Program-made: the position numbers and the translations under genes
Shown here: one piece after another, positions 5,366-64,000 of the stretch
How the letters are laid out: each line of letters starts with the position of its first letter
Numbering within the stretch: position 1 is the first letter of the stretch
DNA from: Octopus sinensis
Lineage: Eukaryota
NCBI RefSeq assembly: GCF_006345805.1
Contig: NW_021831989.1
Location: 62,001-126,000, forward strand
Reading direction: 5' to 3'
DNA length: 64,000 bases
Notes under the pieces: generated by a model
Databases searched by the model: none
What the model was told of the DNA's origin: nothing
The model's input: the letters and a program-made list of their open reading frames with translations, nothing else

Positions 5366-5794
5366 TTTAATAACTAGTTCTATTTTCATGTGACAGCAAT
5401 TAGTATTGCTAGAATAAAGTCTTTTCATTTATTAATTATTAGATTTATATTATGAGAGCACTAGTCTACGCTGTCAGATGAAAGGATGCCACTTTATTTG
5501 ATAATCCTGATTGGTTATGGTTCGATTGTTACTTTATTAAAATATTCGATAATATTGCGTAATGGAAAATAAAGAGAATTATAGAATTCGATCTTAATAA
5601 TTACAAAGTGCTAGAAAGTCAATAATCTCCAGATTATTGTAAATATGACAAAGGAATATTCTTTAGAGGAATACAGTGGCAAATAAAAACAGTTGGATAT
5701 CCTTTAATTCGACTTTTTCTTAAAAAAATTATAAATTAATATTTTGCAACAATTCTTGGCAAGATTTAAATTATTTGCTTAGCATAAAAAATTA

Positions 5795-5995
5795 TAAAGA
5801 TGAGGATTGCCGTGCTGACAAGCACACAACTGCCCATCTATTCCGCTGTCCTGGTCTTTTTTCGCTACGTAAAAAATTTGCCATTCACTTCCCGGAGGTC
5901 CTATGGGAGCAACCTGGGAGGGCGCTGTTGTTTCTGCAAGCTGCTGGTCTCATAACTTAATGTGAGATCGGGGTTATGCAACAATAGCAATAAAG
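5795..5995 (+). mobile_element. 3' remnant of a LINE (C-terminal knuckle, Ingi/Vingi-like)
   Basis: Translates C..DKHTTAHLFRCP...LWEQPGRALLFL*, followed by a CAA-rich tail-like sequence (gcaacaatagcaataaa). Clade assignment tentative. Confidence 0.45.
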
Positions 5996-6128
5996 ATGAG
6001 GATTAATCTCAACTGGATTGTCTAGAAAGGATGCGCATAAAAAGTGAAGATCATTGTTATATGATTAGTTAAAATTAACTGTTTTTCACTCAAAAATAAA
6101 GTTTGTGTTTTGCCCAAGCTGAGTTATA

Positions 6129-6759
6129 TAGTGCATCCCAGAAAGATAAATAATAATCCTATTATTATAAAGAATGATCCTAATATTATAAATACAAATC
6201 CCAAAAAGATAAATAACGATCCCAATATTATAAATAATTCGCATAAAATTCAATGTTAATGTTGACAAACTGTTAATTTCCAAATTATCAGCAACTTTTT
6301 TAATGTTTTCTTTTAGTTGATTTCTTGTTGTTGCTCTCGGACGAATTTTATTTAAATCATTTTTAATTTTTGCAAATAAATGTTCGATGGGATTTAATTG
6401 TGGAGAGTAACTCGGCAAAAATTCAACGTGTATATTTAGATTTCGAAATAAATTTTTTATGTTATTACAATGATGTATCGGTGCGTTGTCCATTATTAAT
6501 ATTTTGTGAATTGCAGAAGGTGATATATCAACTATTTTGGAAATTTCTTTAACAGGAATATTGTTTCTTAATCTTAGAATTTGATTAAATAAATCAAATG
6601 TGAGTGTCTTTCATATGTTATTTATCCTTACTTTACGCACTTTGTAATTTTTATTTATAATATTGGGATCGATATTTATCTTTTTGGGATTTGTATTTAT
6701 AATATTAGGATCATTCTTTATAATAATAGGATTACTATTTATCTTTCTGGGATGCACTA
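6129..6759 (-). mobile_element. Internally deleted Tc1/IS630-like element (631 bp) with ~108-bp TIRs
   Basis: TIRs tagtgcatcccagaaagataaa... and ...tttatctttctgggatgcacta, flanked by TA at 6127-28 and 6760-61. Interior keeps the transposase C-terminus DNAPIHH...LPSYSPQLNPIE (D34E spacing counted). Confidence 0.9.
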
Positions 6760-7139
6760 TAAATATTATGGATCTCGTGGAAAAGGAAATTATTATTAAA
6801 GATAAGAGCTTTTTAAAGCGTGTAGGGATTATGTGACTTTATTTGTTCCGTTTCTTGTGTTTTATTTGGGGAATGACAAAAATTTTTAATGCTACAAATT
6901 TAAAGATCGACTTTGGGATTTGTGACAAGAAAATCTTCTAAAGACGGCATCACAATGCGAAAAATTGCATTAGAACGTTCCCGAAACTGGCTTTAGTTCA
7001 GAAAAATACATTACAATTAATCTCGAAGAATGAACCATAAATTTTTGTGTATCTGAAATCGCCAAAACTAATTTTACTGTTGACGTGTATCCAAAAATGC
7101 CTGGGTAGCAAACAGAAACCTCTACTGACGTAAAAAATA

Positions 7140-7400
7140 TCCAATCCAGATAATTTAATTTCAAAAAAGCTTTTAACCATATTTAGCGAGAAATGGAAGA
7201 AAATCATTTTTACCACTTCTTTATGTTTCCGGAAATAATCATTGTTTAGCATGCTACCACGCTGCGTGGCTAGATAATCCACATTCTTCCTGCTTTTTTG
7301 CAATGAACATATAGTGATCCTGTGTATGCAAAAAACAAATTCTTATTTGCAAAAGACAATACAATTTTTAGCAAGATAATACCGTTACGAGTAATAACCT
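7140..7400 (-). mobile_element. Degenerate R4/Dong-like fragment (knuckle/RHN region)
   Basis: KSRKNVDYLAT..SMLNNDYFRKHKEVVK parallels VDH.ATRCNRMLNSDYTRRHNEIVK of the element at 1-3680. Confidence 0.6.
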
Positions 7401-11003: not shown

Positions 11004-14000
11004 TTTTTTTTTTTTTTTTTTTTTAATTTATACAAACAAGACAAAAATTACAGATAGCTAAGTTAGTTAAAGGCCTCACGAGACACCCGACCAGCCGCGC
11101 GAATGGCGAAGACGTTCCCTCGGATCACAGCAATCGACAGACGTTCCAGGAGCCAAGAAAACTCTCTTGGATCGTGACTAGTCCTTGAAATCCGTCGACC
11201 GAGCGAGCGAAGGAAGCGGAGTGTCTTGGGACCGAAGATCCCGGAGACTCCAAGGCAATTGGAGTAAAGAGCAGCGAGTTGGACAGGTGCCCGTACTTGA
11301 GAATCTTTCGCTCCTCGGCCTGCCTGGAAGCGTGCCCAGGATTGGCGGCGGACAGCGCGAGATTTCCCAGCGAGAACGTGTCCGAGCAGGTAGAATCCCA
11401 AATAAGGGATTTCCCCTGCTCGTAGGGGAAGGTGGACATGCCGTCAGGGCGTTTGCCATCCCCTCTATCCAATCCAACAGGTTCAAGGATAGACGGGATG
11501 CCTGCTGAGGCGAGGGCTCTCTGTACGACTGAGTTGAGTTCACTGTGACGGGGGGCACGACCGGCACTCCGCCGGCAAGCGAGGGGATGCAAACCGTACT
11601 CGTCAACAGTTCCCCCACAACGGCATTTGTGCGACTGGCAGATTTTCAGCCCGACACGGAGGGAGATTGCAATTCTTAGGCATTCCTTGTCCAACAGGTT
11701 CCCGATGGAAGGGAGAGGGAGAGCCTTTAACCAGACACCGCTGCTTTCACAGCGACCTGCACGGAGGCAAGCGACACGGTGTTGATTGGAGACAGGAAGC
11801 AGGCCTTCGAAGATTGCCTGACAAGAGATTTCGTCCCATTGGCGCAGTACAGATTGAGAGTTGGGCAGCTTCGAACCAAACCGAGCCTCCCACCGACCAC
11901 GGGCTGCAGAGTAAACTTCAGACAATTTCCGTTCGGGGAGGTTTCTAAGAACGATGTCTGAGAGAGTACGAGAAGCGTGATGAGCGGATAGGAATGCCGG
12001 GAGGGCAAGATCGGAATAGGATCTCAAGCCAAGGCCACCCCAGCGCACAGGCAGGGATGCCTGAGTCCAGCCTGGATCGTCGAAAGCCAGATTGCAAAGA
12101 GAGCTCGTACCGAGCCTGAGGATATTGTCAAGGTCGGAAAGAAGGTCGCCTCTTTGAAAGCAGGGTGCACATCTTAGGGTGTAAAGGATCTTAGAAACGG
12201 AGAAGTGGTTTCGGAGGAGGAAAAAAGCCACATGAGGCTCGATGACTTTAAGTTTGTCGATCATTTTGGATAAGTGGGAAATTTTTCCAGCGAGTGAGCA
12301 TTCGAGGGCAGAAGGCCCCATGGGGGCACCGAGAATCGTAAGATTTGATTTGTCCGTAATCCGGACGTCTGAGAGAATGCCTCGGCACGTGGAAATTGAA
12401 GCAGTGAAGTCACTCGGATTTAAGGCAATGTTCACGATTTCGGATTTATTGGCGTTTATAGATAGGCCGATGTCCGAGAGGGAAGGGAGGATAGAACGAA
12501 GGTCGTCGAAAACAGCGTCGGGGGGACCGCAAATGGTTGCGTCATCCAGATACCATATGTTAACTGGGGATCGAACAGAGTGAGCGATACTGTTAACGCC
12601 CAAGGCAAAAAGGACAGGACCCAGGGGATCTCCCTGTTGGACCCCGGTGGCCGAAGAGATGGGAACATCGTCGAACATGAGGATACTCGGAGAAGCGTAT
12701 GAGAGATGTACAAGGGGATAAGCGAACGGAACCAGTTCGCGACAGCACTCCAGCAGGTGGTCACGTCTGATGGAGTTGAAAGCGTTTGAGACGTCTAGTT
12801 TGACCATGATAGCCGACTGGGAAGATTCGATGAGTTCACGGAGAGAATGAACGGCCGCTTTGCAGCCGTTTGGGACACCGACCCCGAGTTGGGCGGGGAG
12901 AAACACTTGAGACAAAAAGGGGACAATTGCGTGGCACAGAAGTTTGGCAGAGAGCCTCCGAAGATATTCCCAACGGCAATGGGTCTCACGCCGTTGTCCT
13001 TTTTCCAAGGGCAGTAAGGTTGGCGGAAAAGAAAATATCACGAGCAAAATCGGGGAGGGAACCGGAGATGAAGCGGTTGCACAGGTTGGTAATTGAGCGT
13101 AGGAGTTTTCGACCAGCTTCGGCGGTAGTGGGAGACGTCAGGTCTTTCAGATGACCTGGTCTCAGACCATCTACACCACCACTGCTTCCAGGTGAAAAAT
13201 CCCTCAGGGCTTTCAGTACAAGAGTTTCCGAGACAGCAAAAGGATTGAGAGCGAGGGTGTCAGGGGACGGCTGAGGCCTGAAGTCGTTTGGCTGAGGGGG
13301 ATGTTTTTCCCTGAGGGAATTCAAAACAGCAGGGGTCGTGGGCAAAAGGGGACTTGTCGAGGCAACCAGCCTAACTGCACCACGAACGTCGCCGTCCAAG
13401 AGTTTACTATTAATCTTTCTGTTGAGGTAGTCGACGTCATTCGCGTGAGAGGACACATTATGGGATGGTGAACCACAGGGAAATTCGGAGCTAGCGAGGT
13501 GGTCCCGCAGCCAGCGGATGGAAAAAGAGTTCTTATCGTACAAGGCCAATTCTTGTTTGACGGTTGTAGCCAGCGAAATGGAGGAGGTTTTCACACGGGC
13601 TCTTAATGGGGCAAAACCGAGACCAAAAGAGGCGAAGCAAAACAGCTTAAGCCAATCGGAATGGCCATCAGATGCCAAAGCCTTATCGATTGCGGCGGAC
13701 AGGGAGGAGGCTGCAAAGATACGCGCAGCTTTTGGGATTCTGGATGGGATTTTCCGGAGACGACGGAAGAGCTTGATAGATTTGAGAACTTCCTCGGCAG
13801 ACGGGGATGTTGCGAATGGCGGTTTTTCGGGGAATTCTTGCGGGCTGGAACACTGAACCGGCTGGCAAGAGCGGCAGGAAGGACAGTCCCAAATTAAGAG
13901 AGAGGCAGAAACGCGCCTGGAAAGACGCACGCAAGAAAGGTGGAAGAATCTGTCGCAACTAGAACAGACTCTCCCTTTCTTGCGGTTGTTACTAACTTCG

Positions 14001-14046
14001 CAAGTAGAGCATAGAACAGAAGTGGGTTGGAAACAGAAAGACATAG
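11004..14046 (-). mobile_element. CRE-clade non-LTR retrotransposon, family A copy 1 (PHD + RT + RLE), 5' UTR-truncated
   Basis: ATG 14044, stop 11063. Motifs GVDGLRPGHL, RPIAVG, QLGVG, KLDVSNAFNS, GVQQGDPLGP, WYLDD, RHSELN, KRPDG..WD. Poly(A) tail (T run 11004-11024). 15-bp TSD AAAGAGGTGTTAAAT at 10990-11004 and 14047-14061. Confidence 0.95.
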
Positions 14047-15218
14047 AAAGAGGTGTTAAATGTAATTGATTTTTCATAATTTAGTTAACAAATGTAGAAT
14101 GTCCCAAGGCGGAGTTTTCCCCAAAATAAAGTCCACCGCAATTTTACAAAAGACCGCCGTTGATTCGATTCCCAACCTACTTTTCATATTTTCAATAAAT
14201 CGCTATTCTTTGTAAAACTTCCTTGGTGTGTTGCCATACCATGGCCTTCATATATCGCGGATATGTTGTGACGAAACCAGACAAAACTAAATGCTATAAG
14301 TCAGTGTTTCGCACCCCCAAAAATTTTAAAAAACCAACCCGGCACCCGCATTTTTAAATCTAATAGAGAATATTATTTTAAAAATTAGTTAGGTTCCTCG
14401 AAATTTTTTTGCCTTTTAGTTTTAATTAATTCTTCGAAACGCGATATTTTGTTCGCTAATGGAGTTCTGAGGTCGTTTTCAGGGCTAAAAGAGTTTCTGT
14501 TCTTATTTTTTTATATAGTGGGGATAAAATCCAGATTTACATAGTCAAGTTGTTGCAAATGATACCCGAATCTGAGTGATTTCTTTGCAAGTTTCAGAAA
14601 CCCTACTTGCAAACCGCAACAAAAACCTCCAAAGAATTTGAGTTGTAAAACATTTTCTGCGATGTAGATGTTTGCAATTCAATTAACTTGTCTTTAACTT
14701 CTTTTTTACCATCTATATTTTTTATTTTGAATACGAACGGATTAATATGATACAAAGAACAATGGCGTCATCATAATCAATACATAATGCTTTGAAAATC
14801 TATGATTCAAAGCTCTTCCTCGAATAAAATTTACTATTTTGATACATTCATTTAAAACATCTTTCATGCAAGTGCATGTCAACAAAGAACACAGTGAGTA
14901 ATCTTTACATTTGGAACATGTAAATAAGTTGCAAACCCCGACCTATTTCCTAACATAACTAGAGGCCTAAATTGATCCGATAATTTCCAATGGAATATAA
15001 TGTGCATTAAAAAGTATCAAGTATATGGAAAACATTTTTTGCAGACTTCTTTTTAGAAAGGTTTACAAAAAAAAATTTCGGCAATTAAATTTCCTTACAC
15101 ATAACGAACAAAGGCAAATAGTTGACTGCAATTAGCAACATCAGTAGATTCAGCAAACTACATTTAAATCTTGATGGAAACATTCTTTATGCCCGAAACA
15201 ACACGACTAAGAATATTA

Positions 15219-17066
15219 TGTCGCGTCCCACACGAGCTACCCATCCCATGGTGATTACATGTCACCTGTAAATAAATAATAATGCCTGTCATGGTGACTG
15301 TCAAATTTAATAATTAATTTAATTCCAGATGATATCGATCGCAATCTTGCGAGGTAACTCGCTTGCAATCCGAGGTGCAGCCACTGCTGACTCTTAATTA
15401 GCCATTTTGGTTAAGTTTTTTTTTTCGATTGAAAAAAAAATTTAATTGCATTGATTTCTAATCAATAATCGTTTCAACAATAAAAATTTATTAAAATAAA
15501 GCGTCTACGTTTTTTTAACTTGATTCATATTAACTATTTTAGACTTCCCTAAACTTGTTTTAATCTGTTAAATAAAATAATAATAAAATAGACCTCTAGT
15601 CGATTGTTTGACAAAATTTGAACAACTTCAGCAGGTTCTCCATATGGGGATTCAAATCGGTTTAGCCTTAGGGAAGGATTTGTCCCAAAATCCTTTAGAA
15701 CTCTAACCTAACAATTATTCACTAAAAATACTCCGCTCCCAATTGAACAATCGTATTTCGATTGATGAACATTCATTTTTTTATTCATGCGTTTAAAATA
15801 TGGTGAATTTAAATTAGGTGGAGAAAAATTCAATATAAAATCACTAGCATCCAAGTTGTCTAGCATATGTTATTCAAAATTTACCTGAAACATCTAAAAT
15901 ATTTTCTACATCCATATCCTCTGATGATACATGATAAAAATCATCCGAACACTCACTTTCTTTGAAATTAAACAAATTAAAAAAACTTTTATCATCATGA
16001 ATGACAGAGTTTATACCAGAAACTCCTCTTAGTTTTTTAAATGGTGTTTCATTTATAGAAGAATGAATAGTCGTGTTATATGTAAAAGTGCTTCGTTTAA
16101 TAAATTGGATCTAGTTTTTAGTTGATTCTTCACTCATCAGCTTTGAAAGATTTCGTGTTAAAGTTTGATTAAATCTTTCCACGATACCCTTAAACAGATA
16201 AATATTGTGTCATTACTTGTGATTGAGGATGATTTGGTCTTCCGTAAATATGTTGGATTTTGTTTTTCGTGCAAAAAGAATCGAGATATTTATTCCTAAA
16301 CTCAGTTTCATTATCTGTTTGTAGAATCTCGCAAAAGCCGATTTCTAAACAAATTTCTTTGAAAGCCTCACAAATATCTAAATTCCAATATAAAACATAA
16401 ATATACTTATTGCAGATTTATTTTTAACTCCTTTACAAATAACATACTTACTGTAAACATCAATGACGGTAAATATCCATTTGTAGCCATCGTTCGAATC
16501 GTTAAATTTTTTAACGTCTATAAGGTCTGCTTGGAATCGTTCATTTGGTCTTTTGGCAATCACATGGTACTTAGAATCTGAAACCTGCTATATAAGTTTT
16601 TTATTTTATACTTTAAGTGGAATGGAAAACTTGCATATTGAGCACTCTTTGACGACTCGTTCGATAATTTTACGCTTTATTGTAAAATAGGAGTGTAAAC
16701 ATTCCTGTTGCAGGAGGTATAAGCAGTCATCAATGACAATAAATTTAGTGGATTTTTTAGTTAATTTATATTTTATTTGTCTTGAAGATGTCTGTACAGG
16801 TTGGCCATTTAAAATATTGACTATAGTATGATATTTTGAGATATTTTTTACAAAACCTATTATTACATATACAGGGGAATACATTTTAAAGAGGACATGT
16901 TGAAAATTGAATAATAACGCTAAAAATATTAAATATGCCCACACGAGTAACGAATGATTAAACCACATTAATTATGACATCTGACAGCCAATGACCTCGT
17001 AAAAATGATTGATTGACAGGTGACATGTAGCCAGCATGGGATGCGTAACCACCATGGGACGCGACA
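15219..17066 (-). mobile_element. Ginger2-type DNA transposon (Gypsy-like integrase), decayed
   Basis: Imperfect TIRs TGTCGCGTCCCA..ACATGTCACCTGT with TGT..ACA ends; 5-bp TSD TATTA (15214-18, 17067-71). Integrase remnants VKECSIC, RPNERFQADLID..VIDVYSKY, LQTDNETEF, GIVERFNQTL. Confidence 0.88.
15335..15395 (+). mobile_element. CRE retrotransposon 3'-end remnant inside the Ginger2 element
   Basis: ISIAILRGNSLAIRGAA matches LSIAVIRGNVFAIRAAG at the C-terminus of CRE family A. Confidence 0.7.
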
Positions 17067-24260: not shown

Positions 24261-25866
24261 TTATTTTTTGTATTAATTTTTGTAATAAATTTTTTGACTT
24301 GTCCTTGTCTGGGTAGCTCTGGGGCTGTGCAGACAATATATTTCCTTGGAAAATGGTGCATGAGCCAATTCTATTTCTCAATAAAATTTTATGGGCTTAG
24401 TCCGATTCGTGGTCCGAGGGAAAATGGTCTCCAAAAATTCGATGAAAGTTACTAGAAATTGCATACTTTGGCGAATTTAAGAATAGGTCAAGAAAAAGAA
24501 GCGAAATACATATATTTTTTATCTTAATTGATTGTCAAAAAAAATTGGATTTGTAATAAATCGACTTTTTTTAAAAATAAATTATAATTTAATTTTCTTA
24601 CATCATTCTTGGTAACATTAGAATTATTTTTTTAATTTTTAAAATTATTTGTGCCTTTTAGAATTTAATTTTAAAGCAGAATTTAAAATTTGCTGGACAA
24701 AAAAAATTGGATTTTTTTGTTTTTGAACTGATCTCGTATAAATGAAGCGTAATTCAAAAATCCATTTATCTGATTTTACAAAAGGAGTAATAATTGGCCA
24801 TTACTCTTCAGGAAAAACAATTGAAGAGATATCTAAAATACTGAAAATTGCCAGATCGACCGTGGAATTTTTGACAAGAAAATTTTCCAAAGAAGGCACC
24901 ACTACGCGAAAAATTGGATCTGGACGTTTACCGAAATTCTCTTCAGATCAAAAAAACACAATACAATTAATCTCAAGAGATGAACCCTCAATTTCTGCTG
25001 CGTCTCTTTCTGAGATAACAAAAACTTAATTTAATGTGGAGGTATTTTCCAGAACAATTGGTCGTATACTAAATTCATTTGGATTACATGCCCGAGTTGC
25101 AAAACACAAACCTCTTTTAACATCAAAAAACATCGAATTCAGATGGTTAATTGCGAAAAAGTTTTTAGCCATATCTGACGAAGAATGGAAGAAAGTCATG
25201 TTCTTCTATGAGTCATGTTTTGAGGTCTATATCAGCAAAATAAGGATCTATAACAGCAAAAAAACGGTACTGCCTATGAAAAGTCCAATATCGTACCTAC
25301 TGTTGAGTATGGTGGAGGAAAGTTAATGGTTTGGAGATGTTTCTCATATGAAGGCGTCGGTAATCTTGTTATTATAAATGGAAAAATGAACAGTGCTTAT
25401 TATTTAAACATTTTGTCAAATAATCTGGAGCAATCAGCTTTAAAAAAGAGGTTAAACTCATGTATTTTTTGTCGTAAGTTATAATGTCTAGGCCCGTTCT
25501 AAGTGTCCGGAGTGATAAATCGGATTTATCACTCCAAATCATCTAAATTCTTTGTTTAAGACCTGAAATTCTTAATGATTACTTTTGTTAATTCAATAAT
25601 TTTTTAAATTATTAAAATTTGAAAAAAGTAACTCAGTTAACAAGAACGCGGAAATTAAACAAAGAAATTTTCATCAATCAGGTGATTGAGCGTCATAGTA
25701 ACGAACATAAAAATGTCTCGTATAATATAAATTCAGTTTTCAACAGAGTCTGTATTCAACCGCTACAGATTCTGTGCATATTCTCCTTTGCTATTGATGT
25801 GTATCGAGCGCACCATGAACAGTTTAAAAAACGTGAAACTGTTAAATAAAAATTTAAACTTTTTAA

Positions 25867-26637
25867 TATAAAAATCCGGAAAAAAATATAGACACCAAGA
25901 CAATAGCAGACGTGGACTATGACGAATTTTCCTCATATTTTGAAGGATTAGTCACTCCAAAAGTCATAATTACCACTCAGCGTAAAAAAGTCGAACGAGT
26001 TTCACCATTTTGTTCTCAATTGGCCCGGATTGTTCCAAATTCTGTCCTCATGGTAAGACGGAGGATGTCGATCGACAAATTAACCCAACAAGCAATCGCC
26101 CACAACTTCACAGTCATTATTGTGGTCAACCAAGATAGAAAAACTCCAAGTATTGTGACCTGAGTATTCTTTTAAAAGATGGGATGATCATTTCTCACCT
26201 ACCGGACGGCCCTACTGCGAGATTTAGACTTTCTGGAGTTACTTTGCGCGGGAAAATCAAAAATCGAGCTAAAATGGGCGATGGTTGTCCAGAGATTTTG
26301 GTTTCAAATTTTACTACCAGGCTGGGGACAACGATCAGCCGACTTTTTTGTGCAATTTTTAATCAAAGTCCGGATTTCCGAAAACGACGTGTTGTCACGT
26401 TTAGAAATCAGCGAGATTTTATATTTTTTAGACAACATCGGTTTTAAGTTGTATTTGGATTGTAGATATGTGTTTTTGGATAAAGAGAGAGTGGCTTTGC
26501 AGGAAGTCGGTCCACGTTTTACGTTGAAATTGAGGTCTTTACAGAAAGGGTTGTTGGGGACAACTTCTACGGAATATATTTGGTTTTTTAAACGTCATCA
26601 AATGGAAACTGGGCAAAGAAAGCGTTTTTATTTGTGA
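25867..26637 (+). CDS. RPF1: Ribosome production factor 1 (Brix domain); 5' end missing or unresolved; inside the Pack element
   Basis: DEFSSYF..PKVIITT..VPNS..RR..DRKTPN|GMIISHLPDGPTARF..NFTTRLG..FRNQRDFIFFRQHR|YVF..LQEVGPRFTLKLRSLQKG..RKRFYL*. GT-AG introns 26150-26178 and 26441-26465. No upstream ATG found. Confidence 0.9.
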
Positions 26638-26730
26638 TTTTTTAATTCAATTATAATTAAATTTTTGTTGTTGTGGCTGTACAAATCTCTACTGTTAGCA
26701 TAACATTGATTGCAGACTTTCTATTTAATT

Positions 26731-26855
26731 GCCTCCTCGAACCGGTCGGACTCGATCGGGGAGATGGCAAAAGGCCTGACGGGATGACAATATTCCCGTA
26801 CTCGTCGGGGAAGGCCCTCGTATGGGATGTTACCGTTGTGGATACCTTTTCAAAA
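26731..26855 (+). mobile_element. CRE endonuclease-domain fragment inside the Pack element
   Basis: LLEPVGLDRGDGKRPDGMTIFPYSSGKALVWDVTVVDTFS closely matches the family A RLE. Confidence 0.85.
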
Positions 26856-27539
26856 TCGATGCGGGTACATTTTACCAATAATTTCATCCGTATCCCCGTA
26901 TAGGACGTTATTTAACCAAAATTAGGCGACACAAATAAAATTTATTCCCAAAATCATAATGACTTGGAGTGATAAATCCGATTTATCACTCCGGACACTT
27001 AGAACTGGCCCGGACGCTATAACTTACGACATTTTTTAACAAGATAATGCTCCATGCCACAGTTCTCGAAAAGTTAAAGAATTTATATGCGATAGAAAAT
27101 ATAAAATTCTTGATTGGCCGTCTCAATCACCTGACCTTGATCTAATTGAGCATGTTTGGGCAATGATGAAGAGAAAATTATTGCAAAAACCGCCGAAAAA
27201 CTTGAAAGATTTTGAGACAAAATTACCTAGAAAATTTAGTTATATCAATGAAAAAAAGAAGTTTGGAAGTTTATGAAGCACGTGGAGGGATATCAACTTA
27301 TTAAATTTTAATTTGTTTCATTAAAATAAAAAAATCCAATTTTTTTTGTCCGGCAAATTTTTAATTCTGTTTTAAAATTAAATTCTAAAAGCCAAAAATA
27401 ATTTTAAAAATTAAAAAAATAATTCTAATTTTGCCAAGAATGATGTAAGAAAATTGAATTATAATTTATTTTTAAAAAAAGTCGATTTATTACAAATCCA
27501 ATTTTTTTTGTCAGGTACTGTATGTGCGTATTCTCTCAC

Positions 27540-59009: not shown

Positions 59010-62000
59010 TTTATTTATTTATTTTTTTTTAATTATTTAAATTTTATTTATGTAAACCAAAAGAGAAATAGTCATTGGCAGATAGCCAGAGTATTGCCTC
59101 TGACTATTGCTATAGATATTCTTTCGATTAAATACCGGTGCTCACACGGGTCGCCGGTAACCCTTCCGATTAATGAGGCAATGCGCTGGAGTAGGGTCCG
59201 AGTAGAAGCCCCTGTATTCCTGACGTCTCAACAGCCAGGGGGGCAAACACTCTCCCATTCCCAATTCCAGCGTATTTCTCAGCTTTTCTCTTTTCTGCCC
59301 GTTCAGACGGGGCTCCAGGATTCTCGATGCATAATTTGATGTTCTGATTGGAAAAGGAGTTCACACACGTGACGTCCCAAACCAGACACTTTCCCCTCTG
59401 GAATGGAAATGTGGTCATCCCATCGGGTCTTCTGCCGTCCTCTACGAAAATCCCTGCAGGTTCCAATTGTGTGTGGAATCCAGCAGTTCGAAGAGATCGA
59501 CAGATGATCTGGTTCAGTTCGGAATGCCGTGAGGAACGTCCAATTCCGTTTCGACAGGAGAGGGAGTGATATCCAAACTCGTCAGTCCACACGCCGCACC
59601 GGCATTGGTGTTTTTCATAGACGCGTAGACCGAGGCGCAGACAAACTCCAATTCTTACGGCTTCATCATTAAGAAGGCAGCCAGTTGTATTACAAGGGTA
59701 ACAGTTTAGCCATGCGCCGCTTAGGGGCTGGCTGCCCGCTTGTAAACAAGCCAACCTTCTCTGGTCCATGGTTTCCTTTAGGCATGAAAACGTATTGGCG
59801 TGGACTTTCGACGTCCACTCCGATTGGCAGGTCACATCAGATGGCAATGGCAATCCCAGCTTTTCCCATACGGCGGCGCAATCATCCACAGCAAATGATT
59901 TCCTCTGTTCGTTTATTTGAGAAAGAACAGTGTCGATCATATCTCTGGACGAGAGTACTGAGGAAAAATATGCGCCGTGCGCTGAATCTGCCGGGGTGAT
60001 CAAGCCGATCCCTCCCAGGGAAATTGGAAGAGTTGCCTGTTTCCACGACTGCGTATCGAAGCTAACGTTGAGGATGTTCTCAGTGCAAGCTCTCATATGC
60101 TTGGAATAGTCTTCGAGAAGATCTGTTTCCTGATAGCATTGGGCCGTCCTCAAAAGGTATGTTAACTTCGGAATAGATAGACAGTTCCTCATTAAAAAGA
60201 GCCCAATGTGGCTATCCACACAACGTAATTTTTCAGAAAGAAGGGAAAATTCCGAAATTTTAGCCTTCATAACAGCTTTGATACCACTTTTAAAAATAGG
60301 AGATCCAAGAAAAATCAAATCCTCTTTGAGGGGGAAGGTGCATCCAGGTAGCAGTTTGTCGAATTCGGTCATCCACTTACGAAAGGAAAGTTCGTCCGTG
60401 TTGACATTCACAATTTCGCATTTGCCGCAGTTGAATTCAAGCCCAAGCGCTCCAAATTTAAAAACAAGAGACTTCAGCGTTTCCAAGATGCCCTCAGGGG
60501 TTCCTCCAATTACTCCATCATCCAAATACCACATGTTAAGATCATTTTTACATGATCTCGTTGTATGGTGAATTGCGAGCGAGAATAAAAGAGGACCTAG
60601 AGGGTCACCTTGTTGAACTCCATTGGCAGAATCAAGTATTGTTGTTCCGAATACAAGTGCGGAAGGCTTGGAGTATGCCAAATTTACAATCGGTAGGATG
60701 TGCGGAATTTCTTTGGCACAAGCTTCAAGAATACAGTCTCTTCTAACAGAATTAAATGCATTCTTTAAATCGATCTTGGCCAGAATTCGTTGGGAATCCG
60801 TGGAAGAAAAAACAAACTCACGCAGAGCGTGGACCCCGGCCTCGGCGCCTCCTCGGACACCAACTCCGAGCTGTGTTGGTACGAAGTACGACAGAAGTTC
60901 CCCAGAGCCTGCCTTGCTTGCTATCTTGGAAGCAATCCTTCGGAAAATGTTTCCGACAGCAATGGGGCGAACTCCGCCATCCGTCTTCTTTAGGGCCGTC
61001 AAACATGAGGAGAAGATCAGTTCACGGGCAAAAGAGCATAAGTCGCCGGACAGAATCTTGTTAGAGAGTCCGACGATCTTTTCGAGCAAGGTAGTATTGT
61101 TTTCCCCTGAGAGCCGACACATCAAATCACGAACATGCCCAGGCCTTAGGCCATCCACACCACCAGAGCTGCTGCGACGGAAAGATTTCAGGCTATCGGA
61201 GATGTCCGCGGCCGAGGCTACTAGTGGCATGACATTAGGGAGGTGGAATTTACGAAAGTCTTCAGGGGCGCTGGGATGTTTCGCCTTCAATGCAGAAACA
61301 GTGGCAGTGCTGTATGGAAGGGTGCCCAGGTCGGAGGATATGGTTCGTACAGCGGCCTTTACGTCTCCTTCCATGAGTTTTGTCCGTACCAGCCGCCGTA
61401 TCCTTTCGGCCTCAGATGCCTTTGAAGGCCTTCTTTCAACTTTGTGCGTCCCTTCGGTAGGGGGGCAGAGGACGGACTCGAAATTGGACATGAATTCAGC
61501 GATCTGCGCTTTCAAAACTTTAGCAAGGGATTGCCCATCCCTTTGTTGCTGTATCGGGACGCCCAAAGCGTAGACGGGAAAGAGGAATAGTTTTGCCCAT
61601 GAAAGGGCGTCGGAGTCTTTCTTCGTGGCATTTCCAATCAAGGTGGCAAGACTCTCTGCAGCAAGTAGCCTGACTGCCTTCGGAATCCTGACGGGGATGT
61701 ATCTGCACCGTCGCAAAGCGGACAGATATCGCAGAAATTCCTCTGCATCAGAGACGGGAAGGGCAAAGGGAGGTGGACACCATCCAGGAACTACGCACGA
61801 AGGGCAATTCCACGTCTGGAGGGCAGATGCCTGCTTCCTCTTGAGACCAATACAAGAGAGATGGAAAAAATTCTCACAGGTCGAGCAATTAATTCCACGT
61901 TTCCGTCTGTTCGATTTCTCGCAAGAAAGGCATGCTGGATTATCTGCTTTTTCCATGAATAGATTAGAATAGAATATAATAGGATACACAGAAAATAAGA

Positions 62001-62106
62001 CAATACAATAAGATACACAGAAAATAAGATAATACAATGAAGAACAACAATGAATGTGACAAAATTACAAGTGGGAACAAATTACACCACCACAACAACA
62101 ACGTGC
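59010..62106 (-). mobile_element. CRE-clade non-LTR retrotransposon, family B, apparently full length (PHD + RT + RLE)
   Basis: ATG 61956; ORF open to ~59200, one late frameshift, stop 59072. GVRPIAVG, KIDLKNAFNS, GVQQGDPLGP, WYLDD, RHSELN, RRPDG..WD. A-rich tail 59010-59030; 5' UTR with a 28-bp tandem repeat; no clear TSD. Confidence 0.95.
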
Positions 62107-62312: not shown

Positions 62313-64000
62313 GCACGTTGTTGCACGTTGTTGTTGTTGTTCATTTCTTTCTTTTCATTTGTTCATTTCTTATTCTATAATCCATTTTTGTAATTGTCAT
62401 CTATCTAATAATCTCTCTCTTTCCATTTCTCTCTGTCATCTATTTTTTCATTGTTTCTATCTTGCTCTCTTTCTATGTCTTTCTGTTTCCAACCCACTTC
62501 TGTTCTATGCTCTACTTGCGAAGTTAGTAACAACCGCAAGAAAGGGAGAGTCTGTTCTAGTTGCGACAGATTCTTCCACCTTTCTTGCGTGCGTCTTTCC
62601 AGGCGCGTTTCTGCCTCTCTCTTAATTTGGGACTGTCCTTCCTGCCGCTCTTGCCAGCCGGTTCAGTGTTCCAGCCCGCAAGAACTCCCCGAAAAACCGC
62701 CATTCGCAACATCCCCGTCTGCCGAGGAAGTTCTCAAATCTATCAAGCTCTTCCGTCGTCTCCGGAAAATCCCATCCAGAATCCCAAAAGCTGCGCGTAT
62801 CTTTGCAGCCTCCTCCCTGTCCGCCGCAATCGATAAGGCTTTGGCATCTGATGGCCATTCCGATTGGCTTAAGCTGTTTTGCTTCGCCTCTTTTGGTCTC
62901 GGTTTTGCCCCATTAAGAGCCCGTGTGAAAACCTCCTCATTTCGCTGGCTACAACCGTCAAACAAGAATTGGCCTTGTACGATAAGAACTCTTTTTCCAT
63001 CCGCTGGCTGCGGGACCACCTCGCTAGCTCCGAATTTCCCTCTGGTTCACCATCCCATAATGTGTCCTCTCACGCGAATGACGTCGACTACCTCAACAGA
63101 AAGATTAATAGTAAACTCTTGGACGGCGACGTTCGTGGTGCAGTTAGGCTGGTTGCCTCGACAAGTCCCCTTTTGCCCACGACCCCTGCTGTTTTGAATT
63201 CCCTCAGGGAAAAACATCCCCCTCAGCCAAACGACTTCAGGCCTCAGCCGTCCCCTGACACCCTCGCTCTCAATCCTTTTGCTGTCTCGGAAACTCTTGT
63301 ACTGAAAGCCCTGAGGGACTTTTCACCTGGAAGCAGTGGTGGTGTAGATGGTCTGAGACCAGGTCATCTGAAAGACCTGACGTCTCCCACTACCGCCGAA
63401 GCTGGTCGAAAACTCCTACGCTCAATTACCAACCTGTGCAACCGCTTCATCTCCGGTTCCCTCCCCGATTTTGCTCGTGATATTTTCTTTTCCGCCAACC
63501 TTACTGCCCTTGGGAAAAAGGACAACGGCGTGAGACCCATTGCCGTTGGGAATATCTTTCGGAGGCTCTCTGCCAAACTTCTGTGCCACGCAATTGTCCC
63601 CTTTTTGTCTCAAGTGTTTCTCCCCGCCCAACTCGGGGTCGGTGTCCCAAACGGCTGCGAAGCGGCCGTTCATTCTCTCCGTGAACTCATCGAATCTTCC
63701 CAGTCGGCTATCATGGTCAAACTAGACGTCTCAAACGCTTTCAACTCCATCAGACGTGACCACCTGCTGGAGTGCTGTCGCGAACTGGTTCCGTTCGCTT
63801 ATCCCCTTGTACATCTCTCATACGCTTCTCCGAGTATCCTCATGTTCGACGATGTTCCCATCTCTTCGGCCACCGGGGTCCAACAGGGAGATCCCCTGGG
63901 TCCTGTCCTTTTTGCCTTGGGCGTTAACAGTATCGCTCACTCTGTTCGATCCCCAGTTAACATATGGTATCTGGATGACGCAACCATTTGCGGTCCCCCC
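62313..64000 (+). mobile_element. CRE family A copy 2, with full 5' UTR, running off the window end
   Basis: Nearly identical to the reverse complement of 12521-14052; ATG 62475; pyrimidine-rich 5' UTR starting GCACGTTGTT. Confidence 0.95.

Follow-up and report, generated by a model that had tools for sequence, protein, structure and literature searches.

A single RPF1 gene fragment between the ends of a probable Ginger2/TDD-type transposon in the Octopus sinensis assembly

How does part of a gene, introns included, come to lie between the terminal inverted repeats (TIRs) of a DNA transposon, and does it travel with them? The question is raised by a unit at positions 25470–27031 of a 64,000-nucleotide stretch of the Octopus sinensis assembly GCF_006345805.1 (contig NW_021831989.1, positions 62,001 to 126,000, forward strand; hereafter the window). 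The unit sits in the transposase gene of a Tc1 element and contains a portion of an RPF1 gene followed by a piece of a CRE non-LTR (non-long terminal repeat) retrotransposon. A preliminary description of the window assigned it to a proposed 'Pack-Ginger' family acting as a shuttle for host genes. The best reading of the data presented below is that the unit represents a genuine gene capture, but an isolated one rather than one of a family of gene-shuttling elements, and that the capture was a one-off, DNA-level template switch of the single-copy Pack-TIR type.

The unit starts with TGTCG and ends with CGACA. Comparison of its two 73-bp TIR arms (25470–25542 and 26959–27031) yielded six mismatches, and TTTTT flanks it on both sides (25465–25469 and 27032–27036) as a 5-bp target-site duplication (TSD); on remeasurement all of these values agreed with those reported initially. 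Each TIR harbours a near-perfect 27-bp palindrome (25509–25535 and 26966–26992), which is a candidate integrase binding site. Excision of the unit together with one TTTTT restores CIF*QDNAPCH in the DD34E Tc1 frame, as had been proposed. The host Tc1 is delimited by 191-nucleotide inverted-repeat arms that are 95% identical (24533–24723 on the plus strand and 27323–27513 on the minus strand). We retrieved 15 of 40 scored Tc1 matches, one of which is the window copy itself; the site is empty in all 14 others, in agreement with one bounded insertion. Because the reading frame of the window Tc1 is also shifted further upstream and its first Asp is altered, it would be dead even apart from the Ginger insertion. 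The in-frame TAA stop is already present in three of the 14 empty-site copies (L083, L085 and L087), and the window target, GTA TTTTT TAA, conforms to the pattern TA-N5-TA only by virtue of this stop. The position of the insertion just ahead of the Tc1 catalytic Asp is accordingly explained by a TA-N5-TA target preference acting within an already broken Tc1. An Rfam search of 25400–27100 gave no matches at E 0.1.

The family to which these ends belong was sought with a 25-base TIR pattern over the assembly, the reversed pattern serving as control. The 59 genome matches, as opposed to none for the control, show that the family is not due to chance; one extra left end with more mismatches lies outside these matches. 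The DNA around all listed ends was retrieved, and ends within 6 kb of each other were paired. This yielded 17 paired copies, including the window copy, at 16 distinct sites (two copies share one site). All 17 have TGTCG..CGACA ends and an exact 5-bp TSD, and the target is TA-N5-TA at 15 of the 16 sites compared with 0.65% of window positions. The preliminary description had named MULE-like (Mutator-like element) ends with TSDs of 7–9 bp as the finding that would contradict Ginger2-like ends; the paired copies speak for the latter. MULEs and Pack-MULEs are characterized by a long TSD and a Mutator transposase, and membership in this group was rejected on account of the 5-bp TSD and the rve integrase seen here instead.

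An integrase-coding element with the same TIRs, the existence of which had been envisaged, was indeed found. This 2.24-kb copy (L040) has a single intact frame of 418 residues from the first Met, with an H2C2 motif, a DDE core and D-D(35)E spacing. Pfam recognized only rve and Integrase_H2C2 in the protein; reverse transcriptase is lacking, and a GP[YF] motif is absent from the 418 residues. Homologues of the L040 protein are integrase-only proteins with identities of up to 44%. In the microsporidian homologue P0004, which is 37% identical, residue 1 aligns at the first Met of L040, and the ∼40 N-terminal residues common to both look by eye like a degenerate YPYY region, a motif that Ginger2/TDD integrases are held to lack ahead of the zinc finger. 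Family names among the 120 listed of 141 homologue matches were KRBA2-like, with none for GIN1; KRBA2 derives from Ginger2 according to the available text of Llorens et al. (2012, PMC3575427).

By the definitions of Bao et al. (2010) and Llorens et al. (2012), sequence features make it likely that the family is of the Ginger2/TDD type: TGTNR ends, a 73-bp TIR, an H2C2 plus DDE integrase, an AT-rich target and no GPY/F. In the available text of Bao, Kapitonov and Jurka (2010, PMC2836005), Ginger2/TDD elements have TGTNR ends, TIRs of 50–180 bp (longer in TDD), an H2C2 plus DDE integrase and AT-rich targets, lack GPY/F as well as OTU and Ulp1 domains, and in TDD-4 and TDD-5 generate a 5-bp TSD. 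The 5-bp TSD of the present family corresponds to the TDD length, unlike the published animal Ginger2 families, for which that text gives a 4-bp TSD in RTATAY instead of 5 bp in TA-N5-TA; the present family is also shorter (2.24 kb) than those described there. Ginger1 was rejected, its 4-bp CCGG/CCGT TSD, GPY/F and C-terminal OTU/Ulp1 being absent, as was GingerRoot, in which a 6-bp GC-rich TSD and mostly TA..TA ends take the place of the 5-bp AT-rich TSD and TGT..ACA ends found here.

The Ginger parts of the window copy carry the letter most frequent among the other copies at all but two of 598 positions, indicating that the family is young. Most other copies are, like the window copy, internally deleted, so that deletions are the rule, and an identical 585-bp deletion occurs at four distinct paired sites (L031, L035, L037 and L039). 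In the left end, around family position ∼250–280, six LINE (long interspersed nuclear element) insertions in or next to one short T-run (L032, L037, L044, L047, L049 and L056) mark an insertion hotspot.

Relative to the copy L043, the window copy has undergone two deletions and one replacement. Its left end (25470–25716, plus strand), 98–99.6% identical to most other copies, stops at a deletion of ∼180 bp with a GT overlap at 25715–25716. A short non-coding family segment (25715–25778) leads to a deletion of ∼1.39 kb that takes out nearly the whole integrase, with a CA overlap at 25777–25778. It is followed on the minus strand by an integrase remnant (25777–25894; 100% to L040 and L043 over 118 bp) comprising the 5' leader, the start codon (25816–25814) and the first 13 codons, the Met of which aligns with residue 1 of P0004. 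A 964-bp insert then takes the place of 77 bp that lie ahead of the integrase start, and the right end (26859–27031, including the right TIR) is 98.8% identical to L043 over 173 bp. The statement that the unit has 'no transposase' is therefore right in that the integrase is mostly gone, and needs amendment in that its start codon and first 13 codons persist (25816–25778). We considered whether the ∼180-bp gap is a spliced intron and whether the shell is a miniature inverted-repeat transposable element (MITE), and rejected both: a leftover G points instead to a join at the GT microhomology, and the interior retains integrase remnants. The five junctions, read from the genome assembly, are private to the window copy, as none occurs in any other locus retrieved when compared. 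Among the listed contigs assembled from public sequencing runs (X1–X5), none bridges Ginger and RPF1 or the other cargo joins; since such contigs drop variants, this is no evidence either way. By our own arithmetic the listed non-bridging X1 contigs make up the whole depth of the Ginger|RPF1 bin.

The 964-bp cargo has two parts, 835 bp of RPF1 (25895–26729) and 129 bp of CRE (26730–26858), both on the plus strand. The RPF1 part opens with the last five nucleotides of an intron (25895–25899), continues through exons at 25900–26149, 26179–26440 and 26466–26637 with retained GT-AG introns of 29 (26150–26178) and 25 nucleotides (26441–26465) between them, and ends with 92 bp of 3' flank (26638–26729) in which an ATTAAA at 26656 is a possible poly(A) signal. 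After splicing, the frame stays open over 227 codons up to the stop and has no start codon, its first Met being codon 51. The initial assignment as an intron-containing RPF1 segment is upheld by a Brix domain and by the contigs, in which RPF1 is spliced in X2, X3 and X5 and contains introns in X1 and X4; both introns are absent from X2 and X3 contigs and the 25-nucleotide one from X5. X1 is possibly the source sample and so not independent, and X4 comes from another study. The RPF1 piece is 50% identical to the RPF1-type protein on a chromosome-scale contig versus 34% to IMP4; that these Brix proteins are RPF1 and IMP4 we assume from family motifs. Upstream of 25895, unspliced contigs (X1, X3 and X4) give ∼26 nucleotides of intron and spliced contigs (X2 and X5) the previous exon, from which it follows that the cargo begins five nucleotides within an intron with the 3' splice acceptor kept.

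Parent-type contigs have flanks of their own (5' and 3' in X1, 5' in X4) and run on after 26729 with non-CRE sequence, so that the RPF1|CRE join belongs to the window copy; for the same reason we rejected the view that RPF1 and CRE entered as one pre-existing block. CRE contigs, for their part, extend with CRE sequence before 26730. The CRE piece is internal to the retrotransposon and ends ∼310 nucleotides short of its A-tail, with the A at 26859 common to it and the Ginger right end. That it is a CRE fragment, as first described, is borne out by CRE copies in nine of 12 loci tested, which match the 129 bp in full at 93–100%. With host genomic DNA between TIRs and a parent gene unlinked to the element, the unit corresponds to a single-copy Pack-TIR.

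Compared with the main X1 allele, the cargo RPF1 shows 15 differences over 737 positions, and compared with X4 it shows 34 over 722, of which 14 and 32, respectively, were seen individually. Private to the cargo are six coding changes in 681 nucleotides, four altering amino acids and two silent, compared with one and 19 private to X4 (Fisher p 0.005); this excess points to relaxed selection. All four amino-acid changes are conservative, a class to which each would belong with an expectation of 12% under random change with mutation bias ignored, and may stem from an unsampled donor allele or from leftover constraint. Searches at the DNA and protein levels, by family and with three patterns did not find the parent RPF1 locus in the assembly, nor are its 5' exon and flanks stranded anywhere in it. 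Since the assembly is incomplete in this way, all copy counts given here are lower bounds. In addition, a 58-bp RPF1 exon piece (93%) lies by itself in AT-rich surroundings, at a locus of which the assembly has two versions (L101:4940–4997 on contig C12471 and L102 on C12462), with no TIR in 10 kb; it is possibly another small templated insertion.

Does the family carry host genes elsewhere? RPF1 is present in one of the 17 paired copies, and the cargo has a single full match in the assembly, whereas a mobile multicopy Pack-TIR would be expected at a number of sites, each with its own TSD. The extra DNA of the other 16 paired copies looks like LINE, CRE, Merlin-like, Helitron-like and other Ginger-like sequence, as does that of five unpaired copies in which an insert is flanked by Ginger sequence at either end. 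The longer copies (2.1–5.6 kb) had been candidates for different host cargos, which we rejected because their contents look like LINE, CRE and Merlin-like inserts. Each of the eight large nested inserts in paired copies is bordered by a duplication of 5–13 bp, and Pfam found transposon-type domains in ten of 13 insert open reading frames (ORFs) and nothing in three; the Merlin, hAT and one Helitron assignments are presumptive, based on motifs. CRE pieces recur in four other paired copies (L035, L036, L041 and L046). Together with the 24 and 19 pairs of two other Ginger-like families, described below, host capture amounts to one in 61 paired copies (the copy at 15219 being counted). In these two families no host gene was recognized among the ORFs listed for 25 rare segments of at least 60 bp, with the window's own copy of these families counted in; several short segments were without an ORF, and a cargo common to at least four copies would escape this survey. 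The proposed gene-shuttling family is not borne out by these data, in which inserts other than RPF1 look like transposons, mostly with their own target duplication. The preliminary description also held that a one-off insertion into a resident MITE would follow if all other copies were cargo-free: this is nearly so, but what surrounds the cargo is an autonomous element with deletions and not a MITE.

The same description matched the ends to those of an integrase-coding element elsewhere in the window, at 15219–17066, and invoked mobilization in trans by a Ginger integrase. The match is limited to the terminal TGTCG, with 17 of 73 bases identical in an ungapped comparison. Judged by its sequence, the 15219–17066 element belongs to a separate Ginger-like family (L109–L132; 75 pattern matches, 24 pairs). 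A 5-bp TSD is present in 20 of the 24 pairs, and the duplicated target is TAWTA (TAATA or TATTA) in 18 of these 20 and TA-N5-TA in none; its protein shares 28% identity with that of L040. As the family of the cargo copy has its own intact integrase, the 15219–17066 element is not needed to move the unit and, with its different protein and target sites, is not a likely mobilizer. In this copy the integrase is decayed, and a CRE-like piece of 100 bp lies near 15328–15427.

A third Ginger-like family, with TGTCACCGG ends (L058:1508–2995; L133–L151), gave 67 end matches and 19 pairs, 17 of them with a 5-bp TSD and 12 of these 17 in TA-N5-TA; one of its members sits inside an element of the cargo copy's family. 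Additional elements that end in TGT..ACA and appear to have 5-bp TSDs (L045:942–2377, L126 and L162) bring the number of Ginger-like families in the genome to at least five or six. Three young families in one genome, with 5-bp TSDs throughout, different target rules (TA-N5-TA versus TAWTA) and one intact integrase, could serve studies of target choice by integrase-type transposases.

How, then, did the cargo get in? We give even chances to the reading that an internally deleted Ginger2/TDD copy in a dead Tc1 received RPF1 and CRE once, by template switching during break repair, probably at this site. The family integrase would have inserted a Ginger copy into the Tc1; during repair of a break within this copy, or of an excision gap, DNA synthesis would then have departed from the Ginger template to take up 835 bp from the RPF1 locus and next 129 bp from a CRE copy, before returning to the right end of Ginger at a one-base overlap. 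A DNA template is indicated by the start five nucleotides inside an intron, the two introns kept and the extension of ∼70 nucleotides past the ATTAAA. The cargo is without a target duplication and replaces 77 bp, in contrast to the eight nested insertions with their duplications of 5–13 bp, and fillers occur at deletions of other copies (17 bp in L044, and a 103-bp CRE piece in place of 16 bp in L046). Several points weigh against repair by template switching. Microhomology at the cargo joins is weak (none at Ginger|RPF1, none exact at RPF1|CRE, one base at CRE|Ginger), and the assembly lacks the parent RPF1 locus. RPF1 and CRE both lie in sense orientation with CRE 3', and the CRE piece starts ∼440 nucleotides from the tail, like a 5'-truncated CRE in L041; this strand, order and starting point would fit a retrotransposition route as well. 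Private substitutions number six in 681 coding nucleotides of RPF1 versus two in 598 positions of the Ginger parts, and plain decay does not explain well why all amino-acid changes are conservative.

The retrotransposition route would involve a 5'-truncated CRE that entered the Ginger copy, RPF1 being added at its 5' junction by a jump of the reverse transcriptase to unspliced RNA or as filler, with later deletion of the CRE tail and 77 bp of Ginger. Template-jump chimeras have cellular sequence 5' and LINE sequence 3', both in sense, which is the arrangement seen here; moreover, four other paired copies of the family hold CRE pieces too, and the window CRE piece begins 20 bp from the start of the L041 insertion. 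We nevertheless consider this route doubtful: both introns and the intron tail are retained, the RPF1 end has no poly(A) and extends beyond the possible poly(A) signal, and the absence of a CRE tail and of a target duplication forces the assumption of an extra deletion. Capture by the DNA route at another site, followed by movement of the package into the Tc1 in trans by the family integrase and loss or non-assembly of the donor, is a serious yet unlikely variant. It would account for the perfect TIRs and TSD, an intact integrase frame exists in L040, deleted copies move or are common to several sites (the 585-bp deletion at four), and an assembly that misses the RPF1 parent could also miss a donor. 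However, neither a second copy of the cargo nor an intermediate sharing even one of the five private junctions was among the loci retrieved, and no host cargo was recognized in the 16 other pairs of the family or the 43 pairs of the other two.

An assembly chimera, in which the only RPF1 of the organism was misjoined into a repeat, would explain why the parent RPF1 is absent while the assembly does contain the other four Brix genes of that compartment. Yet it would have to produce five clean private junctions within 1.5 kb and an exact TSD in the preferred target of the family, and it should have left the parent 5' exon and flanks stranded in the assembly, where they are not seen. At 15 of 737 positions the cargo also departs from the main allele of X1, the run that matches it best, and so does not represent that allele. 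We regard such a misjoin as extremely improbable.

In the favoured reading, template switching in break repair, the captured RPF1 is likely a non-functional duplicate, as it lacks the RPF1 start codon and the unit encodes no integrase. With its TIRs intact the unit could still be moved in trans; no signs that it has moved were found in the loci retrieved. A mobile Pack-Ginger in which a Ginger2/TDD element captures and moves exons, and RPF1 is joined by splicing to a Tc1 or Ginger transcript from upstream to give a chimeric Brix product, can be proposed on the grounds of the splice acceptor, the two working introns and the open 227-codon frame with only conservative changes, but we consider it very unlikely.

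The closest known systems bracket this case from several sides. GingerRoot (PMC6839031), an integrase-type DNA transposon with host fragments, some copies holding two, is according to the available text a separate plant superfamily with mostly TA..TA ends and a 6-bp TSD; intron-containing gene fragments of 84–1654 bp occur in 22 of 77 copies, the transposase being usually lost, so that capture is frequent there compared with one in 17 here. Animal Pack-TIRs, in the portion available of Tan et al. (2021, PMC8277862), are mostly hAT and Tc1/mariner elements, and those in single copy arise mostly from gap filling in place. The present unit resembles the latter as a single-copy TIR element with captured genomic DNA and filler-type junctions, and differs in that 835 bp of a gene within a two-part cargo compares with a median cargo of 224 bp. 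Pack-MULEs of a myxozoan parasite (bioRxiv 10.64898/2026.02.11.705288), as far as the available text goes, likewise hold gene fragments in TIR elements of a compact animal genome but have a Mutator transposase and long TSDs and are not Ginger. Captured host gene fragments are not mentioned in the accessible part of PMC2836005, nor is 'Ginger' in the main text and supplement text examined of PMC8277862 or in the main text examined of the myxozoan study; in the literature searched, which lay mostly outside subscription journals and Repbase Reports, no report of gene capture by Ginger2 was found. The unit would extend DNA-level gene capture to a Ginger2/TDD-type element, the related GingerRoot being already known for it. 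As its junctions are unusually readable, with an intron-internal start, a second template and a 77-bp replacement, the case can test gap-filling models; the wider evolutionary claim of gene shuttling is not supported, there being no sign of a shuttling family.

Whose gene was captured? Genes similar to BRX1, IMP4, RPF2 and SSF1 were found on short contigs resembling that of the window, and a second RPF1, 50% identical, lies on a chromosome-scale contig. The Brix genes thereby fall into two sets, one on the chromosome-scale contigs C7, C10 and C13 and the other on the short contigs C8460, C9002, C9073, C12596 and C8999; of the RPF1 of the short-contig set only the captured piece is present. The two sets suggest that the assembly contains two organisms, and we infer that the window derives from a small-intron organism incompletely co-assembled with a much larger genome. 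A decayed duplicate of BRX1 of ∼610 bp with introns (∼79% to L165) was also observed at one locus in two versions with different transposons inserted (L163 on C9532 and L164 on C12179); within the 10 kb retrieved, it is not inside a TIR element.

Elsewhere in the window, near-identical CRE copies in opposite orientation lie 48 kb apart (12520–14052 and 62467–64000), and a 964-residue CRE frame is found at 59170–62064; CREs look recently active in this region. Finally, a second, diverged Tc1 copy at 5684–7342 (∼78% to the host Tc1) contains a nested TIR element at 6127–6761 with 111-bp arms and 21-bp repeats.

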